Source: a virus (lineage: Duplodnaviria; Heunggongvirae; Uroviricota; Caudoviricetes). From it: DNA of 64,000 nucleotides. Where the stretch lies: the IMG/VR virus record IMGVR_UViG_3300034122_001045; one strand, 5' to 3'. The notes under the pieces were generated by a model. It searched no databases. It was not told the DNA's origin and was given only the letters and a program-made list of their open reading frames with translations. The position numbers and the translations under genes are program-made. This document shows, piece by piece, positions 96 to 63,133 of this stretch. Positions within the stretch are counted from its first letter, which is position 1. Each line of letters opens with the position of its first letter.

Positions 96-2564
96 ATGGA
101 CGACAATAAAAAGATTGATCCAAAGAAAAAGAAGCAAAAAAGCTTTAAAGAATTTGACCCAACAAAATACATAGAAACAGAGCCAACTATGAACGAAGCT
201 GCAAGAGGTGTGGCTGTCGTTAGTTTTGGTCGTTTTAATCCAATTACAACCGGTCATGAAAAGTTAGTCAACACCGTCATGTCTGAAGCGATTAAGCGTA
301 AGGGCGAACCTGCGATCTATATGTCTCATACACAAGATCCTAAAAAGAACCCGCTATCGTACAATCAGAAGATATCTCTCGGTCAATCTGCATTTGGCAA
401 GATCGTTAAAAAGTCTACATCAAAAACACTCATAGAAGTAGCCAAAGAGCTCTCAGGAAAATATTCGGAACTCGTAATCGTTGTCGGTTCGGATCGAGTC
501 AATGAATTTGAGACTCTTATGAATAAGTATAACGGAAAAGAATACAATTTTGAGAATATATCAGTAGTATCTGCCGGAGAAAGAGATCCGGATTCTGACG
601 ATGTTTCTGGTATGTCAGCATCAAAGATGAGATCTCTTGCAGCTAAGAAGGACCTTGAAGCTTTTAAGAACGGTCTTCCAAAAAAGTTAAAATCGTCAGC
701 TAAGAAAGTGTATGACATGGTTAGAAACGGAATGAACATGACAGAAAGCACTGAAGAAGTAGTTTTAGAAGCAGCACCTCTTACTCTTGCTCAAAGACGT
801 AAACGTGGTCTTATAATGAAACGTTATAAGACAAAGATAAAGGCTGCTCGTGAGAGAGCTAAGAGAAAGATGGCGCCAAAAGAAAACCTTCTTAAGAGAG
901 CAAGAAAGCGAGCTTTAGAAGTTATTCGTGATCGCCTTATGAAGAACAAGAAGTATTCGGAAATGTCTCCTGCCGAAAAGATCAATCTAGACGCAAGACT
1001 TGCAAAAGTACCTAAGGCAGTCATTGGTCGTATTGCAGCAAAGCTTCTTCCTAAAGTTCGTGCCGCAGAAAAAGAAAGACTAAAGAATGTCCTTGCGCCT
1101 AAACAAGAATCTTTAGATACTGCGTTCGAAACTTTCTTAGAATCAAGAACCGTTAAACCGCAGGACAAAGACGTGGCACATATGCCGGGTTCGCAGCCTA
1201 AGGGATACTATGCTGGCGTTAAATCAAGTGTAAAGGATGATCGTGCTAGACACTTCGCAAAGTATTCTAAAAAGAGCGACGATGAGCAATCATCATATAA
1301 GCCAGCGCCTGGTGATAAAGGTGCTAAGACGAAGCCATCGGTTCACACAACAAAATTTAAACAGATGTTTGGCGAGTCTCTTAACGAAGCTTCACAGGCA
1401 GATACTAAGTTTCGTAAGAGACCGCATATGGCACTAGAAAAGAATGGTTCTGTTAAGTTTGATAAAAGATTTAAGATCTTTAAGAAACAGATTAACGAGA
1501 GCCACGAAGATTTTTCGTTTGAAATACTCGGTCTCATGGAAGATGTTGATAACTTTGTCATGTCTGAAGAGTACGATGTTCTTATGGAAAATAATCCAGA
1601 AGAAGCTCTCAAGAATAAAGCCGAAAAGAGCGGAATATCATACGGAATACTTAAGAAGGTGTTCGATCGTGGTGTAGCTGCTTGGAGAACTGGACACCGT
1701 CCAGGTACGACTCCAACTCAGTGGGGTCTCGCAAGAGTTAACTCGTTTGCCACAAAAGGCAAGGGTACTTGGGGTAAGGCAGACTCAGATCTTGCTGCTA
1801 AAGTAAGAAGCGAAGCAGTATCGCCAACAGCAGTTCATCCTTTTGTCCACATAAAGGACCCTGATAAAGCAGTTAAGATACCAAAGGCTCTAAAGCACAA
1901 GCTAGGTGTTGGTCTAACTCCAAAGCATATGATGATGCATGGAAGTAAAGCAATCGACTTAGATGTTGATGGCGACGTGGATAAGTTTGATAAGACTACA
2001 CCAGACGAAATCACTGGTACAGAGAAGAAGAACCTTACTCGTCAAATGCAAAAGAAGTATTCTGGAGAAGTCAAAACAGGTAAGATCGGAAACGCTTTTG
2101 AATCTGTTGACGAAGGCGTAGAACAAGCAAAGATGAAGATGAAGATCTCTCAAGAAAAGATGGCTGATGCAAGAAGGCACGATCGTATGCTTGATGCTGC
2201 AAAGCAAAGAGATAAATCTTCAAGCAAGAATCTATCTCGAGATATTCAAGAAGGTGATCCGAACCCTCATAATCGTGAGGATGGGACCGATAAGCTAGTC
2301 AAGACTTATAAGAAAGATACGCCCGGAGAGAAATCCCTTAAAGAGTTTATGCTCGCAGGATCGTTTGGCACATTCAAGAGAGGCGATAGAGTTCGTTTTA
2401 CGAAACACTCGATGGATATGTTCGACGGTCAACTACGTAAGGGTACTGTAGTAGGCGGAGACATTTCTTGGCTAAGAGTAAGAGACGACGACGGTACACT
2501 ATATAAAGTTCGCCATTACAACGCAGCTGCCGTCAATAACGACGATCCAGCCAATAAGTTTTAA
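96..2564 (+). CDS. Large lysine-rich protein (822 aa). N-terminal HIGH-motif nucleotidyltransferase domain (NMNAT/NadD/CoaD-like), followed by a ~600-aa basic low-complexity tail. Probable late, virion-packaged internal protein.
   Basis: GRFNPITTGHEKL (HxGH motif) at aa 45-58. SASKMRS (ISSTxIR-like motif) at about aa 174. Degenerate CTS-like KSFKEF at aa 15-20. Late promoter at 61-68. Paralog family with the downstream genes. Confidence 0.6.
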   Translation: MDDNKKIDPKKKKQKSFKEFDPTKYIETEPTMNEAARGVAVVSFGRFNPITTGHEKLVNTVMSEAIKRKGEPAIYMSHTQDPKKNPLSYNQKISLGQSAFGKIVKKSTSKTLIEVAKELSGKYSELVIVVGSDRVNEFETLMNKYNGKEYNFENISVVSAGERDPDSDDVSGMSASKMRSLAAKKDLEAFKNGLPKKLKSSAKKVYDMVRNGMNMTESTEEVVLEAAPLTLAQRRKRGLIMKRYKTKIKAARERAKRKMAPKENLLKRARKRALEVIRDRLMKNKKYSEMSPAEKINLDARLAKVPKAVIGRIAAKLLPKVRAAEKERLKNVLAPKQESLDTAFETFLESRTVKPQDKDVAHMPGSQPKGYYAGVKSSVKDDRARHFAKYSKKSDDEQSSYKPAPGDKGAKTKPSVHTTKFKQMFGESLNEASQADTKFRKRPHMALEKNGSVKFDKRFKIFKKQINESHEDFSFEILGLMEDVDNFVMSEEYDVLMENNPEEALKNKAEKSGISYGILKKVFDRGVAAWRTGHRPGTTPTQWGLARVNSFATKGKGTWGKADSDLAAKVRSEAVSPTAVHPFVHIKDPDKAVKIPKALKHKLGVGLTPKHMMMHGSKAIDLDVDGDVDKFDKTTPDEITGTEKKNLTRQMQKKYSGEVKTGKIGNAFESVDEGVEQAKMKMKISQEKMADARRHDRMLDAAKQRDKSSSKNLSRDIQEGDPNPHNREDGTDKLVKTYKKDTPGEKSLKEFMLAGSFGTFKRGDRVRFTKHSMDMFDGQLRKGTVVGGDISWLRVRDDDGTLYKVRHYNAAAVNNDDPANKF

Positions 2565-2573
2565 GAGGATAAA

Positions 2574-3371
2574 ATGAAATCTTTTAAGAAGTTTGTAAAA
2601 GAAGCATGCTGGACTGGATACAAGCAGGTTGGCATCAAAGAAAAGAATGGACGTAAAGTTCCTAATTGTGTTCCAGAAGAAGCTGATGTTGACGAAGCAT
2701 ATGTTCATACTGATTTTACTGATAAAACAACCCCAATGGGGAATAGAAAGGCATATGCAGCTGCAAAAGCAAATGATGAAAAGAAACCAGTTTCTTTAAA
2801 AAAGGCTCCTTGGGATAAGAAGAACGAAGAAGTTCAACTAGATGAAGTATCCGATAAGAAGCTAGATGTGTATCGTCAGAAGGCATTTGCGGATCAACCA
2901 TCTGGTGACGATGGTTCTGACAAGTATCGTAAGCGCAAGTTTGGTCGTGACCTAGCATTCGCTAAACAAACTGGTAGAGCTAAAGTTCTTGCTACAAAGG
3001 AATCTGTCGAAGAGCTTGATGAGCTTTCACCGAACACGCTTTCTTCTTATGCAAGTAAAGCTAACATAGACGCGTCAAAAGCTAGAAGTCATATGAGAGT
3101 TTCCGCTGGTGGAAAAGATTTTGCTACTCATAAGAAAAGATACGATAAGAGAACCGCCGGTGCTGTGAGGGCAGGAGAAAAGTATCGCAAGTTAGTAGCC
3201 AGAGAAGAAATCAAACTTGATGAAGCTTCAGATCTTCGCATCACCAAGGTCTACAATAAGTTTCCTAAGAAAGCGACCTATGCAGTTCACTCACCAGATC
3301 GCAAGTACTACAAAGAGTTTGACTCAATGGAAAAAGCAAAAGCTCATCACGCAGAAAAGACAGGTAAGTAA
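2574..3371 (+). CDS. Lysine-rich putative internal (capsid-targeted) protein
   Basis: N-terminus MKSFKKFVKE matches the T4 IP capsid-targeting sequence pattern (MKTYQEFIAE) with VxE at positions 8-10. Contains one copy of the EELDELS..TLSSYASKA repeat found in the 4326 gene. Confidence 0.6.
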   Translation: MKSFKKFVKEACWTGYKQVGIKEKNGRKVPNCVPEEADVDEAYVHTDFTDKTTPMGNRKAYAAAKANDEKKPVSLKKAPWDKKNEEVQLDEVSDKKLDVYRQKAFADQPSGDDGSDKYRKRKFGRDLAFAKQTGRAKVLATKESVEELDELSPNTLSSYASKANIDASKARSHMRVSAGGKDFATHKKRYDKRTAGAVRAGEKYRKLVAREEIKLDEASDLRITKVYNKFPKKATYAVHSPDRKYYKEFDSMEKAKAHHAEKTGK

Positions 3372-3372
3372 A

Positions 3373-3651
3373 ATGAAATCTTTTAAGGAATTCGTAGAAC
3401 ATCCAAACTGCGGAACGCCAGACTGCTGCGGACAATGCAGCACCGTCTCGGAAGCCGAGTCTTGGGAAGCAGGATACAAGCGTCGTGTCGTAAAGACTAC
3501 GAGTGCTGAGCATAAAGAAAAGGGAATGAACTGGCGCATCAAGGGTAAAGAGCGCCCAGAGATCTCAATCAAGCTCTATAAAGAAAAGCCATCACAGGCA
3601 GAGTTCAATAAGCAGATGCGTCGAGTCGCCGGCCACGAGTTTGGTGGATAA
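3373..3651 (+). CDS. Small putative internal protein with CTS-like N-terminus (MKSFKEFVEH)
   Basis: Internal start at 3373, with RBS AGGTAAGTAAA and ATG 1 nt after the upstream stop. Cys-rich (CGTPDCCGQC). The longer ORF 3217-3651 overlaps the upstream gene and was rejected. Confidence 0.5.
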   Translation: MKSFKEFVEHPNCGTPDCCGQCSTVSEAESWEAGYKRRVVKTTSAEHKEKGMNWRIKGKERPEISIKLYKEKPSQAEFNKQMRRVAGHEFGG

Positions 3652-3944
3652 TGATTCGTTTTAGTCAATACATCTCAGAAGCATATTTTGTTCAATATGT
3701 CCGTGATAAAGATATTGACGTATTAAAGTTGCGTGATACCAATCAAAGAGGCTGGGTTGAGGTTCGCGGTAAAAAGAACTATGAAGTTACATATGATAAG
3801 AACGATCCTATGCACAAAGCTATCGACGGTTTAGGCAAGGCAGCAAGTATATCAGATCTGATGAATGGTGATGTAGTAAGTATCAATCCTCATCATCCTC
3901 ATGGTAAAAAAGCAATCGAAAACATCCAAAGGTTAATGAAATGA
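3651..3944 (+). CDS. Small putative internal protein with CTS-like N-terminus (MIRFSQYISE)
   Basis: TAATG overlap with the upstream gene. IxE at positions 8-10. Confidence 0.45.
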   Translation: MIRFSQYISEAYFVQYVRDKDIDVLKLRDTNQRGWVEVRGKKNYEVTYDKNDPMHKAIDGLGKAASISDLMNGDVVSINPHHPHGKKAIENIQRLMK

Positions 3945-4249
3945 AGACGTTTAAGCAGTTTCTCGAAGAAAAGGATCCTCGTATCGAGAGAGCAGGAGTT
4001 GCCGGTTTCAATAAGCCAAAGGCGACTCCTAGTCATCCAGAAAAGAGTCACATAGTCGTTGCAAAGTCCGGCGATCAAGTAAAGACGATCCGCTTTGGAC
4101 AGCAAGGAGCCGAGACTGCGGGTGATCCTAAGGAAGGCGAATCCGAAAGAATGAAGATGAAGAGAAAGTCTTTCAAAGCTCGTCACGGTAAGAATATCGC
4201 TAAGGGAAAAATGTCGGCTGCTTATTGGGCCGATAAAGTTAAGTGGTAA
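3941..4249 (+). CDS. Small basic putative internal protein, CTS-like N-terminus (MKTFKQFLEE)
   Basis: ATGA overlap with the upstream gene. LxE at positions 8-10. Lysine-rich. Confidence 0.55.
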   Translation: MKTFKQFLEEKDPRIERAGVAGFNKPKATPSHPEKSHIVVAKSGDQVKTIRFGQQGAETAGDPKEGESERMKMKRKSFKARHGKNIAKGKMSAAYWADKVKW

Positions 4250-4252
4250 CTA

Positions 4253-4260
4253 CTTTTATA
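4253..4260 (+). promoter_or_regulatory. T4-type late promoter motif TATAAATA upstream of the 711-aa repeat protein gene
   Basis: Exact octamer, about 66 nt upstream of the ATG at 4326. Confidence 0.5.
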
Positions 4261-4325
4261 AATAAAGTAAGTAGATCTAGTATCAGCAATTCATGTTAGG
4301 CAATCAATTTCTAAGGACAGAATAA

Positions 4326-6461
4326 ATGAAGAGATTCAAATCTTATATTAACGAATCAGTTGAGCTCGATGAGTCAATCACGAAAATGTCTGATGCTCGT
4401 CTCAAGTTTCACGTTTTGAAAAATGTACCACATGGTAGCTATACCAAAAAAGAGCTATCGGCAGAACACGATCGTCGTAGAAAGACCCAAGGGCCTGCAT
4501 ATATGGCCGTAAAACCTTCACTCAACGAAGAAAATATTGATGAAGCAGTAAATGCTAAAAAGATTGCTGCAGATCATGACGCTGGTCATTCGATTGACGT
4601 TATTGTCCAAAAGCATCTCAATAAAAAGGGTGATAACAAGGATGAGATTCTAAAAGCTATTCAAGCTCACCGCTGGAATAAGCGTATGAAGAAAGAAGAA
4701 GCTGAACTTGACGAAGTTTCACAGGAGACGCTCCGTAATTATCACGCGAAGGCTGCTCTCGATTTAAGAAAGAAAAGAGAAAAACTTGATAAGGGTACTC
4801 TGACCTCTAAAGATTATAAGCAGGGACAAAACCGCGTAACTGGTTTGAATAGAGCTGCCAATAAAATGGAAGAAGTTGAACTTGATGAAGCTCGTAAGAG
4901 CGACTCATATCAATTTACTCACAAACCAGGCGATGCTGAATCTGAAAAAAGATTAGCCGACCTTAAAAAGTCAGTAAAAGGTACTGGTAAGCGTGTTGTA
5001 CTACAAGGTCGTTTGGGTAAAGACAATCCTAACGCACATAAGTATTCTAAGGATGCACCTAGTGCGAAATACAAAGACGGCAAGCGCGTAAATAGTGACG
5101 TTTCAGGAAAATCAGGTGGCCATTCTCATCAGCGCATTCAAAAAGCAGATGCAGCCCATCACGACGTATATGTCTACGACCGTAATGAGTCTGTTGAACT
5201 TGATGAAATTTCAAAAGCCACTTTACGTAAAGTGGGAGGCCAAATGCTACGTAAAGGCCTTTCAGACGACCCAAAAGCAGATAAGCACATGAAGTATGCA
5301 AATCTAGCGTCTGCAAAACTTTATCCTAACCAATATAAAAATTCTCCTCTAAAAGCGAAAGTTAACGCTACAGAAGAAGTCGAGTCCCTCGACGAACTTT
5401 CAAAGAAGACTCTTGGTTCATACGTGAAAAAAGCTGCTGGTGATGCTGTTACTAAAGCTTATAGAGCAGGTGACGTTCGAGATAAAGATAGTGGTAAGAA
5501 TTACATGAAAGCCCTAGGAAGACAGATTGGTATTTCTACAGCAACTAGTAAACTTGCGAAAGAAGAAGTTGAACTTGATGAAGTTTCGACCGCAACTTTG
5601 CAAAGATATAAATCTGCGGCAAGTAAAGCCATGGATCGTGCATCAGACTCAGCAATTGATAAAATGCTAGGCAGTAAGGATTCTCAGTCTGTAGACATTT
5701 CAAAAGAAAAAAAGACTATGGACAAGCGTAGCAAGGGAGTATCCCTCGCTTCAAATAAACTAGCTAAAGAAGAATTCGAACAGATCGACGAACTTTCAAA
5801 GAAGACCCTTGGTTCATATGTTAAGAAAGCCTCACGCAATCTAGCTGGAAGAGAATATAAGCGTGGAGCCGAAAAAGATACAAGCACGTCAAATCTCCAA
5901 AAATCCTATAAAAGAGATATGGGCATCGCTAAAGCAGTTGATAAACTAACTAAAGAAGAAGTTGAAAATCTTGATGAACTCAAGAAATCAACCCTCGGTT
6001 CATATGTGAAGAAGGCTGCTGGTAGTATGGCTGGTAAAACTGCTGTTGCTGCTGCACAAGCCTCATCCTCAATGGGAAAATCTTCGCCAGATATAAAGCG
6101 TGGTATAGTTAACCGTATGAAGGGTATTACTAGAGCTACTGATAAACTCGCAAAAGAAGAAGCAGATCTCGAAGAAAAACTGGTTGGCGGTCAAAAGAAG
6201 TTGGATCACAACAAGAACGGTAAAATCGACTCGCATGATTTTCATCTTATGAGAAAAAAGAAGATGAAGGAAGAAGTTGAAGGTCTTGACGAGATCTCTC
6301 GCGACCTAGCTCGTCGTTACATCCGTAAAATTGCTGATAAGACGAACACCGGAGAACTATCCGTCAAGCAAGTTGAGAAGCGTAGACCTGGTCTAAATCT
6401 TGCTGGTAAGAAAGCATACCCTTCGATCGCTGGTGAACCAAAGGTTCGTGCTACAGATTAA
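4326..6461 (+). CDS. 711-aa lysine-rich repeat protein, putative internal (capsid-targeted) protein
   Basis: N-terminus MKRFKSYINE (IxE at positions 8-10). At least 8 degenerate tandem repeats of the form EEVE(L/N/S)LDE(L/V/I)SKxTLGSYVKKAAG, spaced about 50-70 aa apart. Confidence 0.65.
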   Translation: MKRFKSYINESVELDESITKMSDARLKFHVLKNVPHGSYTKKELSAEHDRRRKTQGPAYMAVKPSLNEENIDEAVNAKKIAADHDAGHSIDVIVQKHLNKKGDNKDEILKAIQAHRWNKRMKKEEAELDEVSQETLRNYHAKAALDLRKKREKLDKGTLTSKDYKQGQNRVTGLNRAANKMEEVELDEARKSDSYQFTHKPGDAESEKRLADLKKSVKGTGKRVVLQGRLGKDNPNAHKYSKDAPSAKYKDGKRVNSDVSGKSGGHSHQRIQKADAAHHDVYVYDRNESVELDEISKATLRKVGGQMLRKGLSDDPKADKHMKYANLASAKLYPNQYKNSPLKAKVNATEEVESLDELSKKTLGSYVKKAAGDAVTKAYRAGDVRDKDSGKNYMKALGRQIGISTATSKLAKEEVELDEVSTATLQRYKSAASKAMDRASDSAIDKMLGSKDSQSVDISKEKKTMDKRSKGVSLASNKLAKEEFEQIDELSKKTLGSYVKKASRNLAGREYKRGAEKDTSTSNLQKSYKRDMGIAKAVDKLTKEEVENLDELKKSTLGSYVKKAAGSMAGKTAVAAAQASSSMGKSSPDIKRGIVNRMKGITRATDKLAKEEADLEEKLVGGQKKLDHNKNGKIDSHDFHLMRKKKMKEEVEGLDEISRDLARRYIRKIADKTNTGELSVKQVEKRRPGLNLAGKKAYPSIAGEPKVRATD

Positions 6462-6626: not shown

Positions 6627-7250
6627 ATGAGTTTATGGGGAAAAACAGATACGCTAGCTTCGGTGCCTAAGTGGCTCAATGCTAACGATCCAAACAAGTC
6701 CAACGACCTAGACAACGCATTCTTCGTTGACCTAACAGAAGCAGCAGTTGCTTCAAACATAGCAAAAGGCCTAGGTACTCCTGGCTGGAACCTTTATCAT
6801 ACATACGTCGATGGAACTGGAAATACACGTCACAAAGCTGAACCGCTTATCGTGATGAAGGTAACAGCTGCAGCCGCAGGCGACCTAGGTATTAGCGGTA
6901 ACACTAATATTGAAGATACTACTGTACCTGACACTATCATTGCGATTACAGTACAACCAGCTAGCGTTTCACGAGTTGCACCTAACACTGCAACATTTAC
7001 TGTTACCGCAACAGCGACACCTACCGCAACACTTACTTACCAGTGGCAGATTCAGCAATCTAACGAATCTGGAACTACATGGACTAACGTAGGTACGAAC
7101 GCCGCTAGCTATACCACAGGTGTAACTGCAGTGGCACCAGGATCTGGCGCAACTAACGGCGATAAGTATCGTGTACTTGTTTCAGCACCAAATAATACAC
7201 CTACTGTTGTAACATCTTCTACCGCAGTACTAACGGTAACTGCATCATAA
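6627..7250 (+). CDS. Ig-like domain protein, probable virion decoration or surface protein
   Basis: C-terminal half is T/S/A-rich beta-strand-like (TYQWQIQQSNESGTTWTNVGTNAASYTT, typical of I-set/Big domains). Strong RBS AAGGAGAAAATAAAATG. Confidence 0.45.
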   Translation: MSLWGKTDTLASVPKWLNANDPNKSNDLDNAFFVDLTEAAVASNIAKGLGTPGWNLYHTYVDGTGNTRHKAEPLIVMKVTAAAAGDLGISGNTNIEDTTVPDTIIAITVQPASVSRVAPNTATFTVTATATPTATLTYQWQIQQSNESGTTWTNVGTNAASYTTGVTAVAPGSGATNGDKYRVLVSAPNNTPTVVTSSTAVLTVTAS

Positions 7251-9118: not shown

Positions 9119-9325
9119 ATGTCTGTTACTGATATTATAAAGCATTCAGTTGATAAAAATCCTCTAGCGATGAAGGAAGCTCTAGAAGCAGAGCTTGCAG
9201 CACGTATTCGTCTTGCTCTCGAAGCAAAGATGTCTGATGACGAAGAAGACGAAGATGAAGAAGAGGAAGATGAAGACGAAGACGAAGACGAAGAAGATGA
9301 GGACGAAGACGAAGCCAAAAAATAA
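9119..9325 (+). CDS. Small protein with a ~30-residue poly-Asp/Glu tail
   Basis: 68 aa, ending DDEEDEDEEEEDEDEDEDEEDEDEDEAKK. A GAA/GAC codon run. The reverse-strand poly-Ser ORF is its mirror image. Confidence 0.5.
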   Translation: MSVTDIIKHSVDKNPLAMKEALEAELAARIRLALEAKMSDDEEDEDEEEEDEDEDEDEEDEDEDEAKK

Positions 9326-10106: not shown

Positions 10107-10132
10107 AATATAAATAGTCTCGATTGGTTTTA

Positions 10133-18401: not shown

Positions 18402-18949
18402 TTCATAGTCATAACTGTTGTGTTCACATCTGTAGGCCATCTTCTAACGGAGATGGCCTTTCTTGCTTCATATACCTTGTAGCTTACTTCGTTTCCTTGA
18501 TTTCCACCAAGAATAACATAGTACATCTTTCCTTCGTCGACATAGGAAGTAACAAAGAATCCGACGTGTCCTTGCCACTGTTGCCTTCCTCTCGGAAACA
18601 CGACTACATCTCCAGGTCGAGGACTCTCAGTAACTTCTTCACCCCACTTTAAAAAGCTTTTTGCCACGAGAGGATGATTACTGACTGACTCGGATCCTGG
18701 TATACCCTTTGTGGATAGAATTGAATTTACGAAGGCGGCGCACCACTCGAAACGTGATGGATCCATACCCATTAGACTCTTTAGTTGCTTTCTGTCTGTT
18801 ACCTCATGCATGCCTACGTAGTTACTAGCATAGTAAACCACCTTTTCACTATTTTCTTTTGCAAGCTTTTCTTCACGTTTAGCAAGATATTCAGGATTCG
18901 TGCAAGCAGTTAAGAATGTTAATATAAATAAAATCATGGTTATTTTCAT
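18398..18949 (-). CDS. Lipoprotein with NlpC/P60-CHAP-like cysteine peptidase domain (cell-wall peptidase)
   Basis: Signal plus lipobox LTAC. A Cys in FEWCAAFVNS and a His in GHVGFF are spaced as in papain-like peptidoglycan peptidases. An opposite-strand gene among plus-strand genes. Confidence 0.55.
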   Translation of the reverse strand: MKITMILFILTFLTACTNPEYLAKREEKLAKENSEKVVYYASNYVGMHEVTDRKQLKSLMGMDPSRFEWCAAFVNSILSTKGIPGSESVSNHPLVAKSFLKWGEEVTESPRPGDVVVFPRGRQQWQGHVGFFVTSYVDEGKMYYVILGGNQGNEVSYKVYEARKAISVRRWPTDVNTTVMTMN

Positions 18950-55689: not shown

Positions 55690-55697
55690 TATTTATA
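55690..55697 (-). promoter_or_regulatory. T4-type late promoter TATAAATA upstream of gp23
   Basis: The reverse complement of tatttata at 55690-55697, about 37 nt upstream of the start. Confidence 0.65.
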
Positions 55698-55709: not shown

Positions 55710-56696
55710 TCACTTAATAGTTTTGTTATTTAGAGCTTCAACGATAGCATTAACGGTTGAGTAAGAAGATACTGGCTTTTTGGCGGTGTCTTCCTGAACA
55801 ACTTCTTCTGCTTCTTCGTTAATCACCTGAGCTTTTTTAGTCTTAAAGAATGACTCCTTAAGAGTTGCAAGATCTGACTTATAACCATCGATTTCATCTA
55901 CATCGAGCTTTTCTGAAAGAACCTTAAGTCTCTCTTTTTGAGAAACGGTAAGACCTTCTGAAACTTCTTCGAAAGCGATTTCAGCTTTTAGTGCAGCAAC
56001 CTCTTTCTTAAGTTCGATGTTTTCGTTGATTATTTCGTTAGCTTGTTCTGTGATAGAAGCGTTATCTTCTTCTAGACTTGCTACAACATCGATTGTCTCA
56101 TCATCGATTTCAATGTTGTGCTCAGTGAATAGTTCTCTAAGTCCATCCATTAGGGACTCTGCCATTTCTACTTTGATACCAGCTTCAATAGCAACTTTAT
56201 TCTCAGTCATCCACTCTTCGACTACGTAGTCAAGATATGAATCGAGGTTCTCTACAACTTCTGCCATCGCTTCATTGAGCGACTCATTAAGATCATTTTC
56301 GAACTGCTCTTCAAGAGAAGCGGTAGCTTCTTCTAGACGAAGAGTAACAGCTTCGTTTACAGCTGCTTCAAATACAAGTGTTACCTTTGATCTGAACTCT
56401 TCTGAAAGATCCATTCCTTCGAACATGTTCTTAATCGATTCTTCGACAGAGATTACCTCTTCTTCGATTACTTCTTCGTCTGAAGCTTCTTCAGCTTCGG
56501 ACATTGGTGGCTTTGCCACTGTTCCTGCCTTTGCGTCAACGACTTTGCTTACATCTGCCTTACGCTTCTTGATCTCTCCACCTACTGGTGTGACTGGACC
56601 AGGAACGGTAGATATTCCGTCGTCACTTACAAAATTTTGTTCGTCTAACCCTGACATATTTACTCTCCTTTTATTGGATTCGTGTTTCATATCCAT
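55710..56696 (-). CDS. 22: Prohead scaffolding protein (gp22-like), acidic coiled coil
   Basis: 328 aa, highly acidic and helical. Lies between the gp23 and gp21 homologs. Confidence 0.7.
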   Translation of the reverse strand: MDMKHESNKRRVNMSGLDEQNFVSDDGISTVPGPVTPVGGEIKKRKADVSKVVDAKAGTVAKPPMSEAEEASDEEVIEEEVISVEESIKNMFEGMDLSEEFRSKVTLVFEAAVNEAVTLRLEEATASLEEQFENDLNESLNEAMAEVVENLDSYLDYVVEEWMTENKVAIEAGIKVEMAESLMDGLRELFTEHNIEIDDETIDVVASLEEDNASITEQANEIINENIELKKEVAALKAEIAFEEVSEGLTVSQKERLKVLSEKLDVDEIDGYKSDLATLKESFFKTKKAQVINEEAEEVVQEDTAKKPVSSYSTVNAIVEALNNKTIK

Positions 56697-56707
56697 ATTT
56701 ATAAAAC

Positions 56708-57382
56708 TTAGTTCTTCAGAGAACGAATGAAGTTTTCGAATAGACGCGCAGCATATGCTTCGTCTACCTTTCTTACAGTTCTCTTATACTCTTTTTTCAC
56801 TTCTTGAACGGCCTGCTCAATCATCTGCTGAGCTCTCCAAGTTCCAGATACTATATCGTAATAGTAGTCCGTGTTTTCCATAATACCGTTCACAAAGCAG
56901 TTTGGACCCGATGGATCTGTGACGATATCGACAGTCGCAAGATGAAAGTCGTTTTGAACTTCCATGATGCCTTCTTTCGTTGCCTTTACAGATCCAAGGC
57001 CGCGAGTAGAAACACCAACCTTGACACCCTCGTCAATGAACGTCTTTACAATGTTACCCATTGGAGTACCTAGGATCTTTGCCTTACCAACGAAGTTTGA
57101 ACCGTCGCGCTTCATCTCAGTAATAAGGTGAGATACGCGATCACCGTTGATCTGAGGACCATCTGGGTGCCCAAGTTCTCCAAGAGCTCTTTTAGTCTTA
57201 ATGAACTGCTCGCCGTATCTCATCATTTCTTTTTCTAGAATCGTCGATGGATATATTCTTCCATTACGGTTCTTGATATCTCCTTGCATGAAGATACCTT
57301 CGATGAAATACTGCTTTGGCTCGTGTTCGCTTGTTTCAGTTAGAACTCTAACTTCTTCAATTGTTTCCGTGATCAGTTTCAT
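56708..57382 (-). CDS. 21: Prohead protease (T4 gp21 homolog)
   Basis: YFIEGIFMQGDIKNRNGRIYP..LGELGHP...GVSTRGLGSV aligns with T4 gp21 YIEGIFMQAEVVNRNKRLYP..LGELNHP..GVSSRGLGSL. Start set at the internal Met, which has RBS AAGGAGAAATCAT and a late promoter 21 nt upstream. The track ORF extends to 57496. Confidence 0.85.
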   Translation of the reverse strand: MKLITETIEEVRVLTETSEHEPKQYFIEGIFMQGDIKNRNGRIYPSTILEKEMMRYGEQFIKTKRALGELGHPDGPQINGDRVSHLITEMKRDGSNFVGKAKILGTPMGNIVKTFIDEGVKVGVSTRGLGSVKATKEGIMEVQNDFHLATVDIVTDPSGPNCFVNGIMENTDYYYDIVSGTWRAQQMIEQAVQEVKKEYKRTVRKVDEAYAARLFENFIRSLKN

Positions 57383-57402: not shown

Positions 57403-57410
57403 TATTTATA
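57403..57410 (-). promoter_or_regulatory. T4-type late promoter TATAAATA upstream of gp21
   Basis: The reverse complement of tatttata. Confidence 0.6.
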
Positions 57411-57413
57411 CTT

Positions 57414-57656
57414 TTAGTACTTATATGAAACTGGAGTGCAACGAAGAGTAGTGGTGCCAGCGATTGTTTCGGTTGGCAGCTTTTCCACAATTTCAACAGT
57501 TCCCTGATGCATCGTAAACGTAGTATTTGCGTGTGCTTCAGTTACAATAGTAACTACAGAATTTGCTGCGGCATAGATACGAACGAGTTTTGCATCGTAT
57601 ACTGTGTTTGCAGTCGTGAATGAAATTTCTACATCAGTAGGTTTGATTATCATCAT
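57414..57656 (-). CDS. Small head-module protein (gp67/gp68 position)
   Basis: 80 aa. Its position between the portal and the protease is as in T4. Confidence 0.4.
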   Translation of the reverse strand: MMIIKPTDVEISFTTANTVYDAKLVRIYAAANSVVTIVTEAHANTTFTMHQGTVEIVEKLPTETIAGTTTLRCTPVSYKY

Positions 57657-58786
57657 AGTGCTTCCCTCGCAAATCCTAGGATCTCATTAAAGCCAACTTT
57701 ATCTTTGAGTGCTACTTCTTCCATCTTTTTACGATTTGCAGAAGAAAGATCTTTAAGCATCTGGTTTAGAAGATCGGCGTCTTCTTTCTTAAGAATAACT
57801 GAACCACCGTCCTTGAGCTTAACAATACCCTGGCTAAAAACTTCAGTTAGTTCTGCAGATTCACGGATCTTTTCTTCACCATCGTCGTCGCGTTCCACTT
57901 TACGAATAGGAACATTTCGAGTATGAGACTTTCCGTCTGCACCTGTATAGGATACTGTTTTCTTTATTGCAGAACGAGTTACTTCACCGAGGTTTGTTTC
58001 TTCGCCATACATATCTTCGTAATCCATGGCTGACATCATACGTCTGTCACCTTCCATGTAAGCGTGTAGGCTCATCATTTCTTTATGTACGGCAGAAAGT
58101 TTATTTTGGAACCACTCTTCTGGATCAAAATCCATACCCTCGAGATATCCCATGATTTCTTCAGCACCGTATGCGATGTAATATAGCTGATTCATCATCA
58201 TTGGAATTTCTTCCATCGCGTCTTCGGCAACTAGGTCGGCTTGCTCATTCTTTGCGATTGACTTTGCAATCTTATGAGCCTTAGTGATTGTGCTTTTCTT
58301 TAGAGGTGGCTTATCTCCGGTTGCCTTCATAGCAGCAGCCATACCAATCGCGTATGGTTCTCTTACTCTTTCAGACATGGCCTTACCAATCGCTTTACGA
58401 CGAGCGTGAAGGTACTTATCAGACTTGTCCGTGTCGCCGTCGTTATCAATGTCGTCATCTTCCTTGCCGACCGGGTCCATCTTCTTTGCTTCTTTCATTG
58501 TCTTAGAAGACTTGTTACTTTTTTTATACTTCTGGTGACTATCTTCTGAGTCGTATTCTCCGCCAGCTGCAGTTGGCGATTTAAAGCTATTTTCATAGAC
58601 AGCTTCGTCCTCGCCCTTGTTATAATCCGCACGACGCTTAGGAGCCTTTCCGAGCTTTCCAGTGAAAGTATGATCTGTAGCTACAGGATGCTGAACCTTT
58701 GTTACGATATGCTTATCTTTGAAATCTTTTTCGTCGTCTGCTTTTGGCTGAGAGACCTCTGATATTATTTGACGTAGAGTCTTCAT
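57653..58786 (-). CDS. Prohead core/internal protein with N-terminal capsid-targeting sequence
   Basis: N-terminus MKTLRQIISE (IxE at 8-10) matches the T4 CTS pattern. K/D/E-rich, 377 aa. Lies in the head-gene cluster. Confidence 0.55.
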   Translation of the reverse strand: MKTLRQIISEVSQPKADDEKDFKDKHIVTKVQHPVATDHTFTGKLGKAPKRRADYNKGEDEAVYENSFKSPTAAGGEYDSEDSHQKYKKSNKSSKTMKEAKKMDPVGKEDDDIDNDGDTDKSDKYLHARRKAIGKAMSERVREPYAIGMAAAMKATGDKPPLKKSTITKAHKIAKSIAKNEQADLVAEDAMEEIPMMMNQLYYIAYGAEEIMGYLEGMDFDPEEWFQNKLSAVHKEMMSLHAYMEGDRRMMSAMDYEDMYGEETNLGEVTRSAIKKTVSYTGADGKSHTRNVPIRKVERDDDGEEKIRESAELTEVFSQGIVKLKDGGSVILKKEDADLLNQMLKDLSSANRKKMEEVALKDKVGFNEILGFAREAL

Positions 58787-60450
58787 CTTTTAAGCCCTCT
58801 TTTGAATGGTTTTACTTTATTATTTATAACTTTTAATGATTCTTCGGCCTCTTGATCATTCTGAGGAGGCTGTTGCTGATTTTCTGGCGGCTGATCTGCT
58901 GGTGCTGGAGGTTGTTCATCATCAGGCATACCAACGTCGTACAAGCCTTCGTCAGTTTCTTTCTTGATCTGCTTTTTCATTTCACGTATGTCTTCATCTG
59001 ACATGAATAGAACGTTTTTGATAACCCATTCTCTTGAGTAGTACTTACCGATCTGTTCCTCGATATCTCTAAGCATCGTTACTTTTTCACGAAGTATTTC
59101 CGTCTGCTTGAGTTCTTCGAAGTAGTTATCTTTCATGAAGTCATATCGTATCTTATTCTTTATGTCAGCCCATTCCTCAGGATCGAGAATACCTTTAAGA
59201 ATGAGTTGCTTTTCTAAGAAGAGATCAAATATACCAGAGAAACGTAGTCTTTGACGGCGAATGAACTTACTAAATTTGAGTTCGTCTCTTGATATCTCGG
59301 ACACTCTGCCGAAGCTATACATAGTCTCTGGTTCTAAACGTGATATCGGAACTTTAAGGGACTTATAAAGCTTTCTTTGGAAGTACTGAAGGTTTTCGTC
59401 ACCGCTTAGAGCGGGCGCGGATCCACCAGCAAGAATGTCAACTTCTGTGGAACGCTCGCCGCCACGACGAGGGAACCAGAAGTCTTCAGTCATTGTCATA
59501 AACTTACGACCGTCTGTAATGTCACCGCTGTCGGAGTCGTACTGTAGTTTGTTCTTATGGCGAGTCATCATATCGTGTAGATACTGCTCAGCCTTAGCCT
59601 TTGGTAACTGACCGACGTCGATATAGAAAATTCTTCTTTCCGGAGCACGGGTAATCGTATAGATAACAGTCGCATCTTCAAGCATACGCAGTTGGTTTAG
59701 AGGTTTAATACCAGGATGCAGGTGCGATAGTACAAGCGAATTCGTCTCATTCATGAGACCAGACGTTACACGAGCAACGGAATCTTTTGCGATGCGGTAT
59801 CCCTGAACCGTCTGACCAGAGTTAACATTGCTCGTTGTTGACTTTGAACCAAAACCAGAATCGGAGTATAGATAGTACTCCTTCTTGATCTTCTTAAGAG
59901 GTATACCGGAGTGCGGATCCTTTGACTTCTCGTCCATCTCTTTGACGAGACGAAGCTTACGTGGGTCAATGTAGCGTAGCTCTTTGATGCCAGCTTTCAG
60001 ATCTTCGTTATCAATAATGATATGATAATTCAATCTTCCATCTACATAGAACTTCTGAAAAATATCATAGCCGTAGTTGGAAAAGTCGAGAAGACGTAGC
60101 ACTTCTTCAAACTCTTCGACGATACGATCTTTTACTTTGTCTGGTAATTCTGTATCGTCAAGAATAATCTCTACAACATTCTCATGACTATCGACGTTAA
60201 TTGCTTCGTTTACAATTTCGTCTACGGCCTGTGCAATCTCAGGCTGCATTACCATTCCACGATACTTGGTGATAAGCTCGCCTTCAGTCTTGGCGTCGCC
60301 TTCCATATTAATAGCGATACCATAGGATCCTCCTAGAGAGTTTCCTATGGTGATTGCGCCTTCGTCGTTGTTAGGTTCTACAAAAGAGACAGCTCTTTCT
60401 TCTTCGGCTCCGCCGATTTCTCTTTTGATTTCAAATCCAAATACACGCAT
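58783..60450 (-). CDS. 20: Portal protein (gp20-like)
   Basis: 555 aa, in the T4-colinear position. RBS AAGGAGATTGAAATAATG. Confidence 0.75.
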   Translation of the reverse strand: MRVFGFEIKREIGGAEEERAVSFVEPNNDEGAITIGNSLGGSYGIAINMEGDAKTEGELITKYRGMVMQPEIAQAVDEIVNEAINVDSHENVVEIILDDTELPDKVKDRIVEEFEEVLRLLDFSNYGYDIFQKFYVDGRLNYHIIIDNEDLKAGIKELRYIDPRKLRLVKEMDEKSKDPHSGIPLKKIKKEYYLYSDSGFGSKSTTSNVNSGQTVQGYRIAKDSVARVTSGLMNETNSLVLSHLHPGIKPLNQLRMLEDATVIYTITRAPERRIFYIDVGQLPKAKAEQYLHDMMTRHKNKLQYDSDSGDITDGRKFMTMTEDFWFPRRGGERSTEVDILAGGSAPALSGDENLQYFQRKLYKSLKVPISRLEPETMYSFGRVSEISRDELKFSKFIRRQRLRFSGIFDLFLEKQLILKGILDPEEWADIKNKIRYDFMKDNYFEELKQTEILREKVTMLRDIEEQIGKYYSREWVIKNVLFMSDEDIREMKKQIKKETDEGLYDVGMPDDEQPPAPADQPPENQQQPPQNDQEAEESLKVINNKVKPFKRGLKR

Positions 60451-63113: not shown

Positions 63114-63121
63114 TTATTTAT
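63114..63121 (-). promoter_or_regulatory. T4-type late promoter TATAAATA upstream of gp18
   Basis: The reverse complement of tatttata. Confidence 0.55.
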
Positions 63122-63133
63122 AATAACGAGATT

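Follow-up and report, generated by a model that had tools for sequence, protein, structure and literature searches.

Modular organization of the 711-aa protein

The 64,000 bp stretch of DNA analysed here (IMG/VR record IMGVR_UViG_3300034122_001045, referred to at its full length as the window) comes from an uncultured T4-like myovirus. At positions 4326 to 6461 of its plus strand, with the stop codon inside these coordinates, an open reading frame (ORF) with an ATG start encodes a 711-aa protein with a pI of 9.66 and a lysine content of 15.5%. This protein, predicted to be a polyprotein of separable cassettes, is a string of seven hairpin units and four other modules on one common joint motif.

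The joint motif [LIVM]DE was found at aa 14, 71, 128, 186, 292, 355, 417, 487, 549 and 654 (10 sites), with an LEE in phase at aa 615. In 5000 shuffles of the protein the mean number of [LIVM]DE sites was 0.79 and the maximum 7, and the longer pattern E..[LIVM]DE[LIVA], present nine times, gave a shuffle mean of 0.04 and a maximum of 2. The gaps between sites are 57, 57, 58, 106, 63, 62, 70, 62, 66 and 39 aa, with a median of 62; their coefficient of variation is 0.26, against 0.92 under random placement, and equally regular placements made up a fraction of 3e-5. These 11 sites agree with the first-pass annotation of the ORF, which had described a repeat at about 60-aa spacing. The protein contains 13 [LI]xE tripeptides where 5.9 were expected, and 11 of them are segment joints; the other two are an INE in the N-terminal targeting sequence described below and an LNE five residues ahead of a joint.

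A profile hidden Markov model (HMM) grown from the units detected seven significant copies in the protein, and three hairpin units (aa 348-409, 480-541 and 542-607) match one another at 1e-9 to 1e-12. The segments at aa 17-73, 74-130, 189-294 and 618-656 are not homologous to the hairpin unit and have only the boundary motif in common with it. The first-pass observation of a repeat is confirmed, with some refinement. Two of the examples given for the repeat, VELDEARKS and the first unit, had to be withdrawn: aa 189-294 and 17-73 are different modules that share the boundary motif alone. A further copy claimed for the gene starting at 2574 was borne out and extended. This paralogous gene (2574 to 3371, plus strand) encodes a 265-aa protein that begins MKSFKKFVKE and carries four boundary motifs and, by HMM, two significant hairpin units. 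A six-frame translation of the window searched with the HMM gave no hairpin units beyond those of these two proteins.

No DNA tandem repeats in phase with the protein repeat were detected using Tandem Repeats Finder, and the joint codons vary synonymously, in line with the codon usage of the genome. This marks the repeats as ancient, maintained by selection on the amino-acid sequence. A recent origin by duplication or gene conversion was considered and ruled out by the synonymous, genome-like boundary codons.

All of the segments lie on the plus strand. The first ten residues, MKRFKSYINE (4326 to 4355), match the pattern of the T4 capsid-targeting sequence (CTS), with a predicted cut after E10. 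They are followed by a joint peptide, SVELDE (aa 11-16; 4356 to 4373), which holds the first boundary motif; elsewhere, the stretch ahead of module 1 reads ..EEVELDE in 48/48 flank pairs. Module 1 (aa 17-73; 4374 to 4544) runs from SITKMSDARLKFH to PSLNEENIDE, includes the inner LNE at aa 66-68, and was found in 61 copies at varying positions in homologues. Module 2 (aa 74-130; 4545 to 4715), from AVNAKKIAADHD to KEEAELDE, has 17 such copies. The first hairpin unit (aa 131-188; 4716 to 4889) corresponds to an HMM domain at aa 121-180 (E 1.3e-18). Next to it stands a 106-aa module (aa 189-294; 4890 to 5207; 32 copies in homologues) that extends from ARKSDSYQFTHKPGD to VYDRNESVELDE and has predicted beta strands. 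It is rich in His and Lys, and its local confidence in the AlphaFold2 model (pLDDT about 76) is the best among the non-hairpin modules.

Five hairpin units follow in a row. The first of them is degenerate (aa 295-357; 5208 to 5396; HMM domain 286-332, E 7e-08), and the next four lie at aa 358-419 (5397 to 5582; domain 348-410, E 7e-23), aa 420-489 (5583 to 5792; domain 412-479, E 1.4e-14), aa 490-551 (5793 to 5978; domain 480-541, E 1.4e-21) and aa 552-617 (5979 to 6176; domain 542-608, E 2.9e-23), the last of these ending in the LEE. A 39-aa module (aa 618-656; 6177 to 6293; 60 copies in homologues) contains an EF-hand-like loop, DHNKNGKIDSHD, and the protein closes with a C-terminal hairpin unit (aa 657-711; 6294 to 6458; domain 647-696, E 8.6e-15). 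The loop, at aa 627-638 (6204 to 6239), fits the calcium-loop pattern of EF-hands and dockerins. Homologues of the module score just under the cut-off for the Pfam EF-hand and in one case over that for Dockerin_1 (27.0 against 22.9 bits), although no stretch passes by itself.

Cutting at all predicted sites would yield, besides the 10-aa CTS and a joint peptide of 6 aa, eleven fragments of 39-106 aa. Each of these fragments would be basic (pI 8.3-10.5, net charge +1 to +8), and their masses would be 4.6-11.8 kDa, most about 6-7 kDa.

The hairpin unit

A profile of the hairpin unit was built from 487 units in 120 homologues. The unit is about 62 aa long, basic in its body and acidic in its tail, and its consensus reads a-k-E-E-v-e-e-[LI]-D-E | [LIV]-S-k-k-t-l-g-s-Y-i-k-K-a, about 28 variable residues, and R-k-k-G-i-k-k-A-t-d-[KR]-L. 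Conservation is highest at E10 (0.96), L63 (0.89), Y19 (0.86), A59 (0.84), D9 (0.81) and R52 (0.79). AlphaFold2 modelled a single unit (aa 490-551) as two helices with a short turn between them (pLDDT 69). The full-length model is all-helical apart from a small strand-containing region at aa 197-285, and its confidence (pLDDT 50.7) is too low for a fold search.

Searches of the PDB by sequence and profile returned no solved structure for the unit, the best match being a flagellin at E 2.3, and Foldseek comparison of the unit model with the PDB and BFVD gave zero matches. With the whole protein as query, Pfam gave only DUF7443 (PF24227), at 16.6 bits against a gathering threshold of 27 and over 18 residues around one joint; homologues score 23-28 bits against this family. 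In PHROGs the protein matches phrog_5709, annotated as 'unknown function'. Matches of homologues to HWE_HK, Fer4_23 and lantibiotic families were judged spurious, with no stretch passing alone. The searches made found the hairpin unit in no curated Pfam family, in no solved structure and in no paper of the library that was searched.

Capsid-targeting sequence, protease and late promoter

The T4 CTS comprises the first 10 residues of IPIII, in which residues 4 and 7 target the protein and residues 8 and 10 direct its processing (PMC9026906); its sequence is MKTYQEFIAE (PMC8442874). MKRFKSYINE carries F4, Y7, I8 and E10 and agrees with the T4 CTS at all four mapped positions, which supports the CTS that the first-pass annotation had mentioned for this protein. 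In T4, an Asp at CTS position 10 prevents processing. A regular expression for the CTS matched the six-frame translation of the window at six places, all of them gene starts: five consecutive genes (2574 to 4326) and orf377, the gene that separates portal from protease.

The T4 protease gp21 cleaves behind the Glu of L/I-X-E, with very few determinants beyond this motif (PMC9026906), and every repeat boundary in the 711-aa protein is an L/I-x-E. The presumed processing enzyme is a gp21-type prohead protease encoded at 56708 to 57382 on the minus strand (Pfam Peptidase_S77, E 1.7e-35). Its motifs ALGELGHP (containing the His) and GVSTRGLGS (containing the Ser) align with ALGELNHP and GVSSRGLGS of T4, and the cut site of T4 gp23, LTE65|A, aligns with LQE60|T of the window capsid protein. 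From these alignments, gp21-type specificity appears to be conserved in this phage.

A T4-type late promoter box, TATAAATA, lies at 4257 to 4264 on the plus strand, 62 nt before the ATG of the cassette gene. The window contains nine copies of this box where 2.8 were expected: 61-68, 4257-4264, 10109-10116 and 18923-18930 on the plus strand, and 55690-55697, 56696-56703, 57403-57410, 58821-58828 and 63115-63122 on the minus strand. Seven of the nine, all but those at 10109 and 18923, could be assigned to positions just upstream of structural or CTS genes, and besides the cassette gene the box precedes the major capsid protein (MCP), scaffold, protease, orf377, sheath and 822-aa genes. Judging by this motif, the cassette gene is probably expressed late, together with the head genes.

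Conservation of the joints and shuffling of modules

At least 1905 proteins match the 711-aa protein as a whole, and the unit profile, run against a library of 1.84 billion metagenomic proteins as the first-pass annotation had suggested, matched 4,644 cluster representatives (50% identity). In a tblastn search of 50,697 phage records the sole matches were Caulobacter phage Cr30 and Synechococcus phage S-SKS1, in keeping with the earlier remark that the protein has no counterpart among the T4 internal proteins. The Cr30 protein, AGS80949.1, is 682 aa long and has 4 hairpin units, with joints that include ESENLNE and EELDE. The related protein P0060 gave no match in a tblastn search against phages. 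The number of units per protein ranges from 1 to 8 among the 120 closest homologues and reaches 11 matched stretches when the search is widened. Of the 101 close homologues with an MK or MR start, 82 have an F as fourth residue.

Among 481 hairpin units of homologues, the residue before the predicted cut (P1) is Glu in 481/481, P3 is Leu or Ile in 467/481 (97%), and P2 is Asp in 96%; directly after the cut stand Leu (262 units), Ile (156) and Val (61). For the non-hairpin modules, copies in homologues were located by their interiors alone and distinct flank contexts were counted. Module 1 has [LIVM]xE directly before it in 48/48 distinct contexts and [LIM][NS]E after it in all 48; module 2 has [LIVM]xE directly before it in 14/14. 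The same holds for the 106-aa module in 24/27 contexts, with downstream neighbours that differ. The EF-hand-like module is the exception, as it is preceded by [LIVM]xE in 25/48 contexts. For all four non-hairpin modules the neighbours differ on both sides between proteins. Across module types P2 varies, with joints such as LNE, MSE, ITE and INE. The modules of gene 2574 follow the same pattern, with joints like ITE and INE, so that P2 is evidently free whatever the module type, in accord with the L/I-X-E rule.

The order of modules also differs between proteins, and modules recombine exactly at E|X. The last hairpin unit of the 711-aa protein is 80% identical to aa 67-131 of another related protein, P0024, where it lies near the N-terminus, and the first 100 residues of the 711-aa protein match residues 554-658 of P0060. 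Since the joints are conserved whatever they join, and since reshuffling takes place exactly at E|X, the joint doubles as the unit boundary for exchange in this cassette family. Single-linkage clustering of the cassettes was uninformative, with nearly all of them in one cluster owing to the shared joints.

Genomic context

Head and tail genes in the window were called using PHROGs and Pfam. In addition to the protease they include a portal gene (58783-60450, minus strand), a T4_CASP scaffold (6e-61), a gp23-type capsid protein and a tail sheath. No close DNA match was found among cultured phages, and the window capsid protein shares 62-68% identity with the capsid proteins of Sinorhizobium phages phiM12 and phiN3, Stenotrophomonas phage DLP6, Methylophilales phage Melnitz and several cyanophages. 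A JGI metagenome contig has a gene order identical to that of the window.

In all contexts examined, contigs with the hairpin unit also carry head and tail genes of T4-like type, and the cassette family occurs at two loci. At the first, seen in the window, Cr30 and several long contigs, the gene belongs to a cluster with CTS-like starts, upstream of a DUF7207 gene, an endolysin and nucleotide-metabolism genes. At the second, seen for P0060, P0024 and 21 of 34 IMG/VR viral contigs, the array lies inside an orf377-like gene between portal and protease, with the N- and C-terminal parts of orf377 on either side, followed by the scaffold and capsid genes. In T4 this slot holds genes 67 and 68, which are reported to be missing from cyanomyoviruses (PMC2984593, PMC1079782).

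In the window, orf377 (57653 to 58786, minus strand) is CTS-tagged (MKTLRQIISE). Its N-terminal part resembles the first 65 residues of phiM12 gp058 (E 2e-11), a 135-aa protein beginning MKSFKQLVET... that is the minimal orf377-like gene; neither orf377 nor phiM12 gp058 gave a significant BLASTP match to T4 gp68. The two ends of orf377 flank a 1-2 kb cassette array in many relatives, and its middle (aa 129-244) has matches in S-RIM8-type cyanophages, to hypothetical proteins. It also carries a loop, DIDNDGDTDKSD, similar to DHNKNGKIDSHD, in a region that matches DUF3008 in relatives.

Between gene 2574 and the 711-aa gene, and clustered with the latter, are three small CTS genes (3373 to 4249, plus strand) starting at 3373, 3651 and 3941, whose products begin MKSFKEFVEH, MIRFSQYISE and MKTFKQFLEE. 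None of the three was matched as a cassette within the polyproteins among 247 collected proteins. The 102-aa product of the last (3941-4249, plus strand) matches phrog_7595 at 8e-42 as well as positions 533-604 of 1338 in phrog_220, 'minor head protein and DNA pilot'. An 822-aa neighbour (96-2564, plus strand) has a cytidylyltransferase-like domain and DUF5824, and carries KSFKEF at aa 15-20, which is not N-terminal. In related contigs the same cluster includes large proteins with CTS-like starts (L010 3416-5947 and 9796-11463; L008 4749-5978) that contain Zeta_toxin/AAA_33, HicA_toxin or DUF6267, which suggests a wider set of capsid-delivered proteins.

Downstream of the cassette gene, the gene at 6627-7250 (plus strand) encodes a conserved 'head protein' (phrog_613, 1.5e-36). 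Genes with similar M-x-L-W-x-K starts recur in Cr30 and in a 136-kb contig (L003 7910-8470; L010 11490-12050), so that the cassette neighbourhood is syntenic across distant relatives. Further along, a 68-aa ORF (9119-9325, plus strand) combines a helix at its N-terminus with a tail made purely of Asp and Glu, an architecture that resembles T4 gp67 (the prohead core protein PIP) and the small post-portal ORFs of phiM12 and Melnitz. Its MAFFT identity to gp67 is 42%, mostly in the acidic tail, and the phrog_1064 HMM was not matched.

Interpretation and alternative explanations

The explanation that we favour has three steps. The decapeptide MKRFKSYINE, acting as a T4-type CTS, would bring the protein into the prohead core, as its sequence and the T4 precedent suggest. 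The gp21-family protease would then cleave behind the Glu of the CTS and of 11 further L/I-x-E joints, releasing about 11 basic fragments. In the last step, which is the weakest, these fragments might stay with the packaged DNA, because they are basic like the T4 internal proteins, and neutralise or organise it or enter the cell with it. That the protein is targeted to the head and cleaved many times, whatever the fate of the fragments, seems to us fairly probable. The whole chain, in which a capsid-targeted late polyprotein is cut into basic mini-proteins that remain with the DNA, we regard as about evenly balanced between right and wrong. The first-pass annotation had called the protein a modular scaffold. 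Modular it is, but since each repeat boundary is a gp21 L/I-x-E motif, a polyprotein cut into its modules is more likely than an intact repeat protein. DNA condensation, also proposed there, would be plausible for fragments with pI values of 8.3-10.5. Its suggestion of repeat-mediated oligomerisation found no support in the AlphaFold2 models, in which the protein is a low-confidence helical chain and the unit a pair of helices.

Several observations weigh against this polyprotein explanation. A strict CTS is present in only 15 of 127 distant representatives (12%). The P2 Asp and the upstream EEVE run are conserved beyond the needs of the protease, as judged from the CTS and MCP sites, and for this reason the motif may have another or an additional role. 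Within cassettes [LI]xE is depleted (295 against 458 expected, z -8.9), but the depletion is unspecific, as the control motifs [LI]E and [LI]xD are depleted too. In the AlphaFold2 model the helices appear to run straight through several joints without linkers, at the low overall pLDDT of 50.7. Our literature search turned up no virion proteome of Cr30 or S-SKS1 and no described CTS polyprotein; virion location and cleavage are inferred for every family member, and sequence does not distinguish retained from expelled fragments.

The last point bears on a rather unlikely alternative, an auxiliary prohead-core protein that is cut in the same way but whose modules act before cleavage, in core filling or sizing or in multivalent scaffold binding, the fragments then being expelled. 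The T4 core proteins gp22, gp67 and gp68 are cleaved into a number of pieces, most of which leave the head (PMC9026906), in 21 of 34 related loci the array fills the slot that genes 67 and 68 have in T4, and the wide variation in unit number (1 to 8, up to 11) would fit a role in bulk or size. The predicted products, however, are basic and of 4.6-12 kDa, unlike those of the scaffold protein of the same phage, in which [LI]xE sites are dense and the predicted cuts give irregular pieces of 4-60 aa. The module interiors are conserved as well (Y19 0.86, R52 0.79, A59 0.84, L63 0.89), neither T4 gp68 nor T4_CASP is similar in sequence, and the 711-aa gene itself lies in the CTS cluster, outside the portal-protease slot and about 50 kb from it.

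If instead the protein were cut at the CTS at most and acted as an intact DNA-condensing or oligomerising repeat protein, EEVELDE would be structural, for instance an acidic linker that pairs with basic helices. Such a role would account for the conservation of P2 Asp, of the acidic run and of a hydrophobic P1' beyond the L/I-x-E rule, for the helices modelled as continuous across some joints, and for the basic character of the whole protein. It accords poorly with the finding that the same joint, with variable P2, precedes non-homologous modules and that modules recombine exactly at E|X; moreover, 12 exposed L/I-x-E sites beside an active gp21-type protease in the prohead would be expected to be cut, as the T4 enzyme asks for very little beyond the motif (PMC9026906). 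We consider an intact protein distinctly unlikely. Very improbable, in our view, is a late cytoplasmic protein outside the virion, a hydrophilic helical repeat protein such as a nucleic-acid or stress-type binder, in which the likeness to a CTS arose by chance. It would suit the composition of the 711-aa protein (rich in K, A, S, E and D, with a hydrophobic share of 23%), the scarcity of strict CTS among distant representatives and the fact that no fold or family match links the protein to capsids. Chance does not readily explain why the CTS pattern is restricted to six gene starts in the window or why F stands at position 4 in most close homologues that start with MK or MR, and the late promoter in common with head genes and the array embedded in the portal-protease-scaffold-MCP block of relatives also speak for the virion.

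A further idea, which we think unlikely, is that the L/I-x-E joint serves as a universal connector, by which this phage group could stack, exchange and deliver small proteins of any kind by way of the capsid, and that the family forms a combinatorial array of injected mini-effectors for anti-defence or host takeover, freed by the maturation protease and produced either as strings or from single CTS genes. N-terminal Leu is a bacterial N-degron residue, and because over half of the released hairpin units would start with Leu, they might be short-lived or serve as ClpS/ClpAP decoys, a role that is purely speculative.

Comparison with known systems

The protein resembles the T4 internal proteins in its 10-residue CTS with aromatic residues at positions 4 and 7, I8 and E10, and also in its predicted basic products, its late gene, the presence of a gp21-family protease and a T4-type scaffold, and its location among clustered, fast-changing genes. 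The T4 internal proteins are cut once, beside the CTS (PMC8442874), whereas the 711-aa protein has 11 further joints and about 11 predicted products. It shows no sequence similarity to them, and the cassettes of its family are shuffled between genes. With the T4 core proteins gp22, gp67 and gp68 it would share multiple L/I-x-E sites in one chain, and many relatives have their cassette gene in the portal-to-protease slot of genes 67 and 68. The 711-aa protein differs from these core proteins in that it is basic, its sites are evenly spaced and bound conserved modules, and it has no homology to gp68 or T4_CASP.

The inner-body and ejection proteins of phiKZ, 201phi2-1 and SPN3US are cut after Glu by a gp21-related protease and form paralogous families, some of them with multiple sites; their motif reads S/A-X-E, and where several sites occur they belong to propeptides that are lost (PMC9026906). 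In the present family the joints have Leu or Ile at P3 in 97% and separate repeated modules, tblastn gave no jumbo-phage matches, and the carriers are T4-like rather than jumbo chimalliviruses. Polyvalent proteins combine many modules, with a mosaic order, in one chain thought to travel with the DNA, and they include enzymatic effectors and often their own peptidase (PMC5512222). The 711-aa protein is likewise multi-modular with a mosaic order, but it has no recognised enzymatic domain, its modules are 40-106 aa long, and the capsid protease would act at a fixed joint. Eight family members of 1032-1440 aa gave no Pfam match above the curated cut-off either, although one of them has EF-hand hits slightly under it. 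By its predicted targeting, protease, timing and charge the 711-aa protein is like a T4 internal protein, and by its many predicted cuts it is like a core protein, while it is a member of neither group.

In the T4 view, internal head proteins are single chains trimmed once, at the CTS, and head proteins that are cut many times are scaffold and are then discarded. We would describe the 711-aa protein as a probable CTS-targeted head polyprotein in which sites for the maturation protease delimit exchangeable cassettes. If this is true, it would represent a third design, in which reshufflable, conserved small basic proteins are strung together and freed by the maturation protease. The cassette family may also fill the portal-to-protease slot in phages for which reviews call genes 67 and 68 missing (PMC2984593, PMC1079782), and, if the proposal is right, it would be a natural multi-cargo version of the CTS packaging that is already used in T4 nanoparticle engineering.

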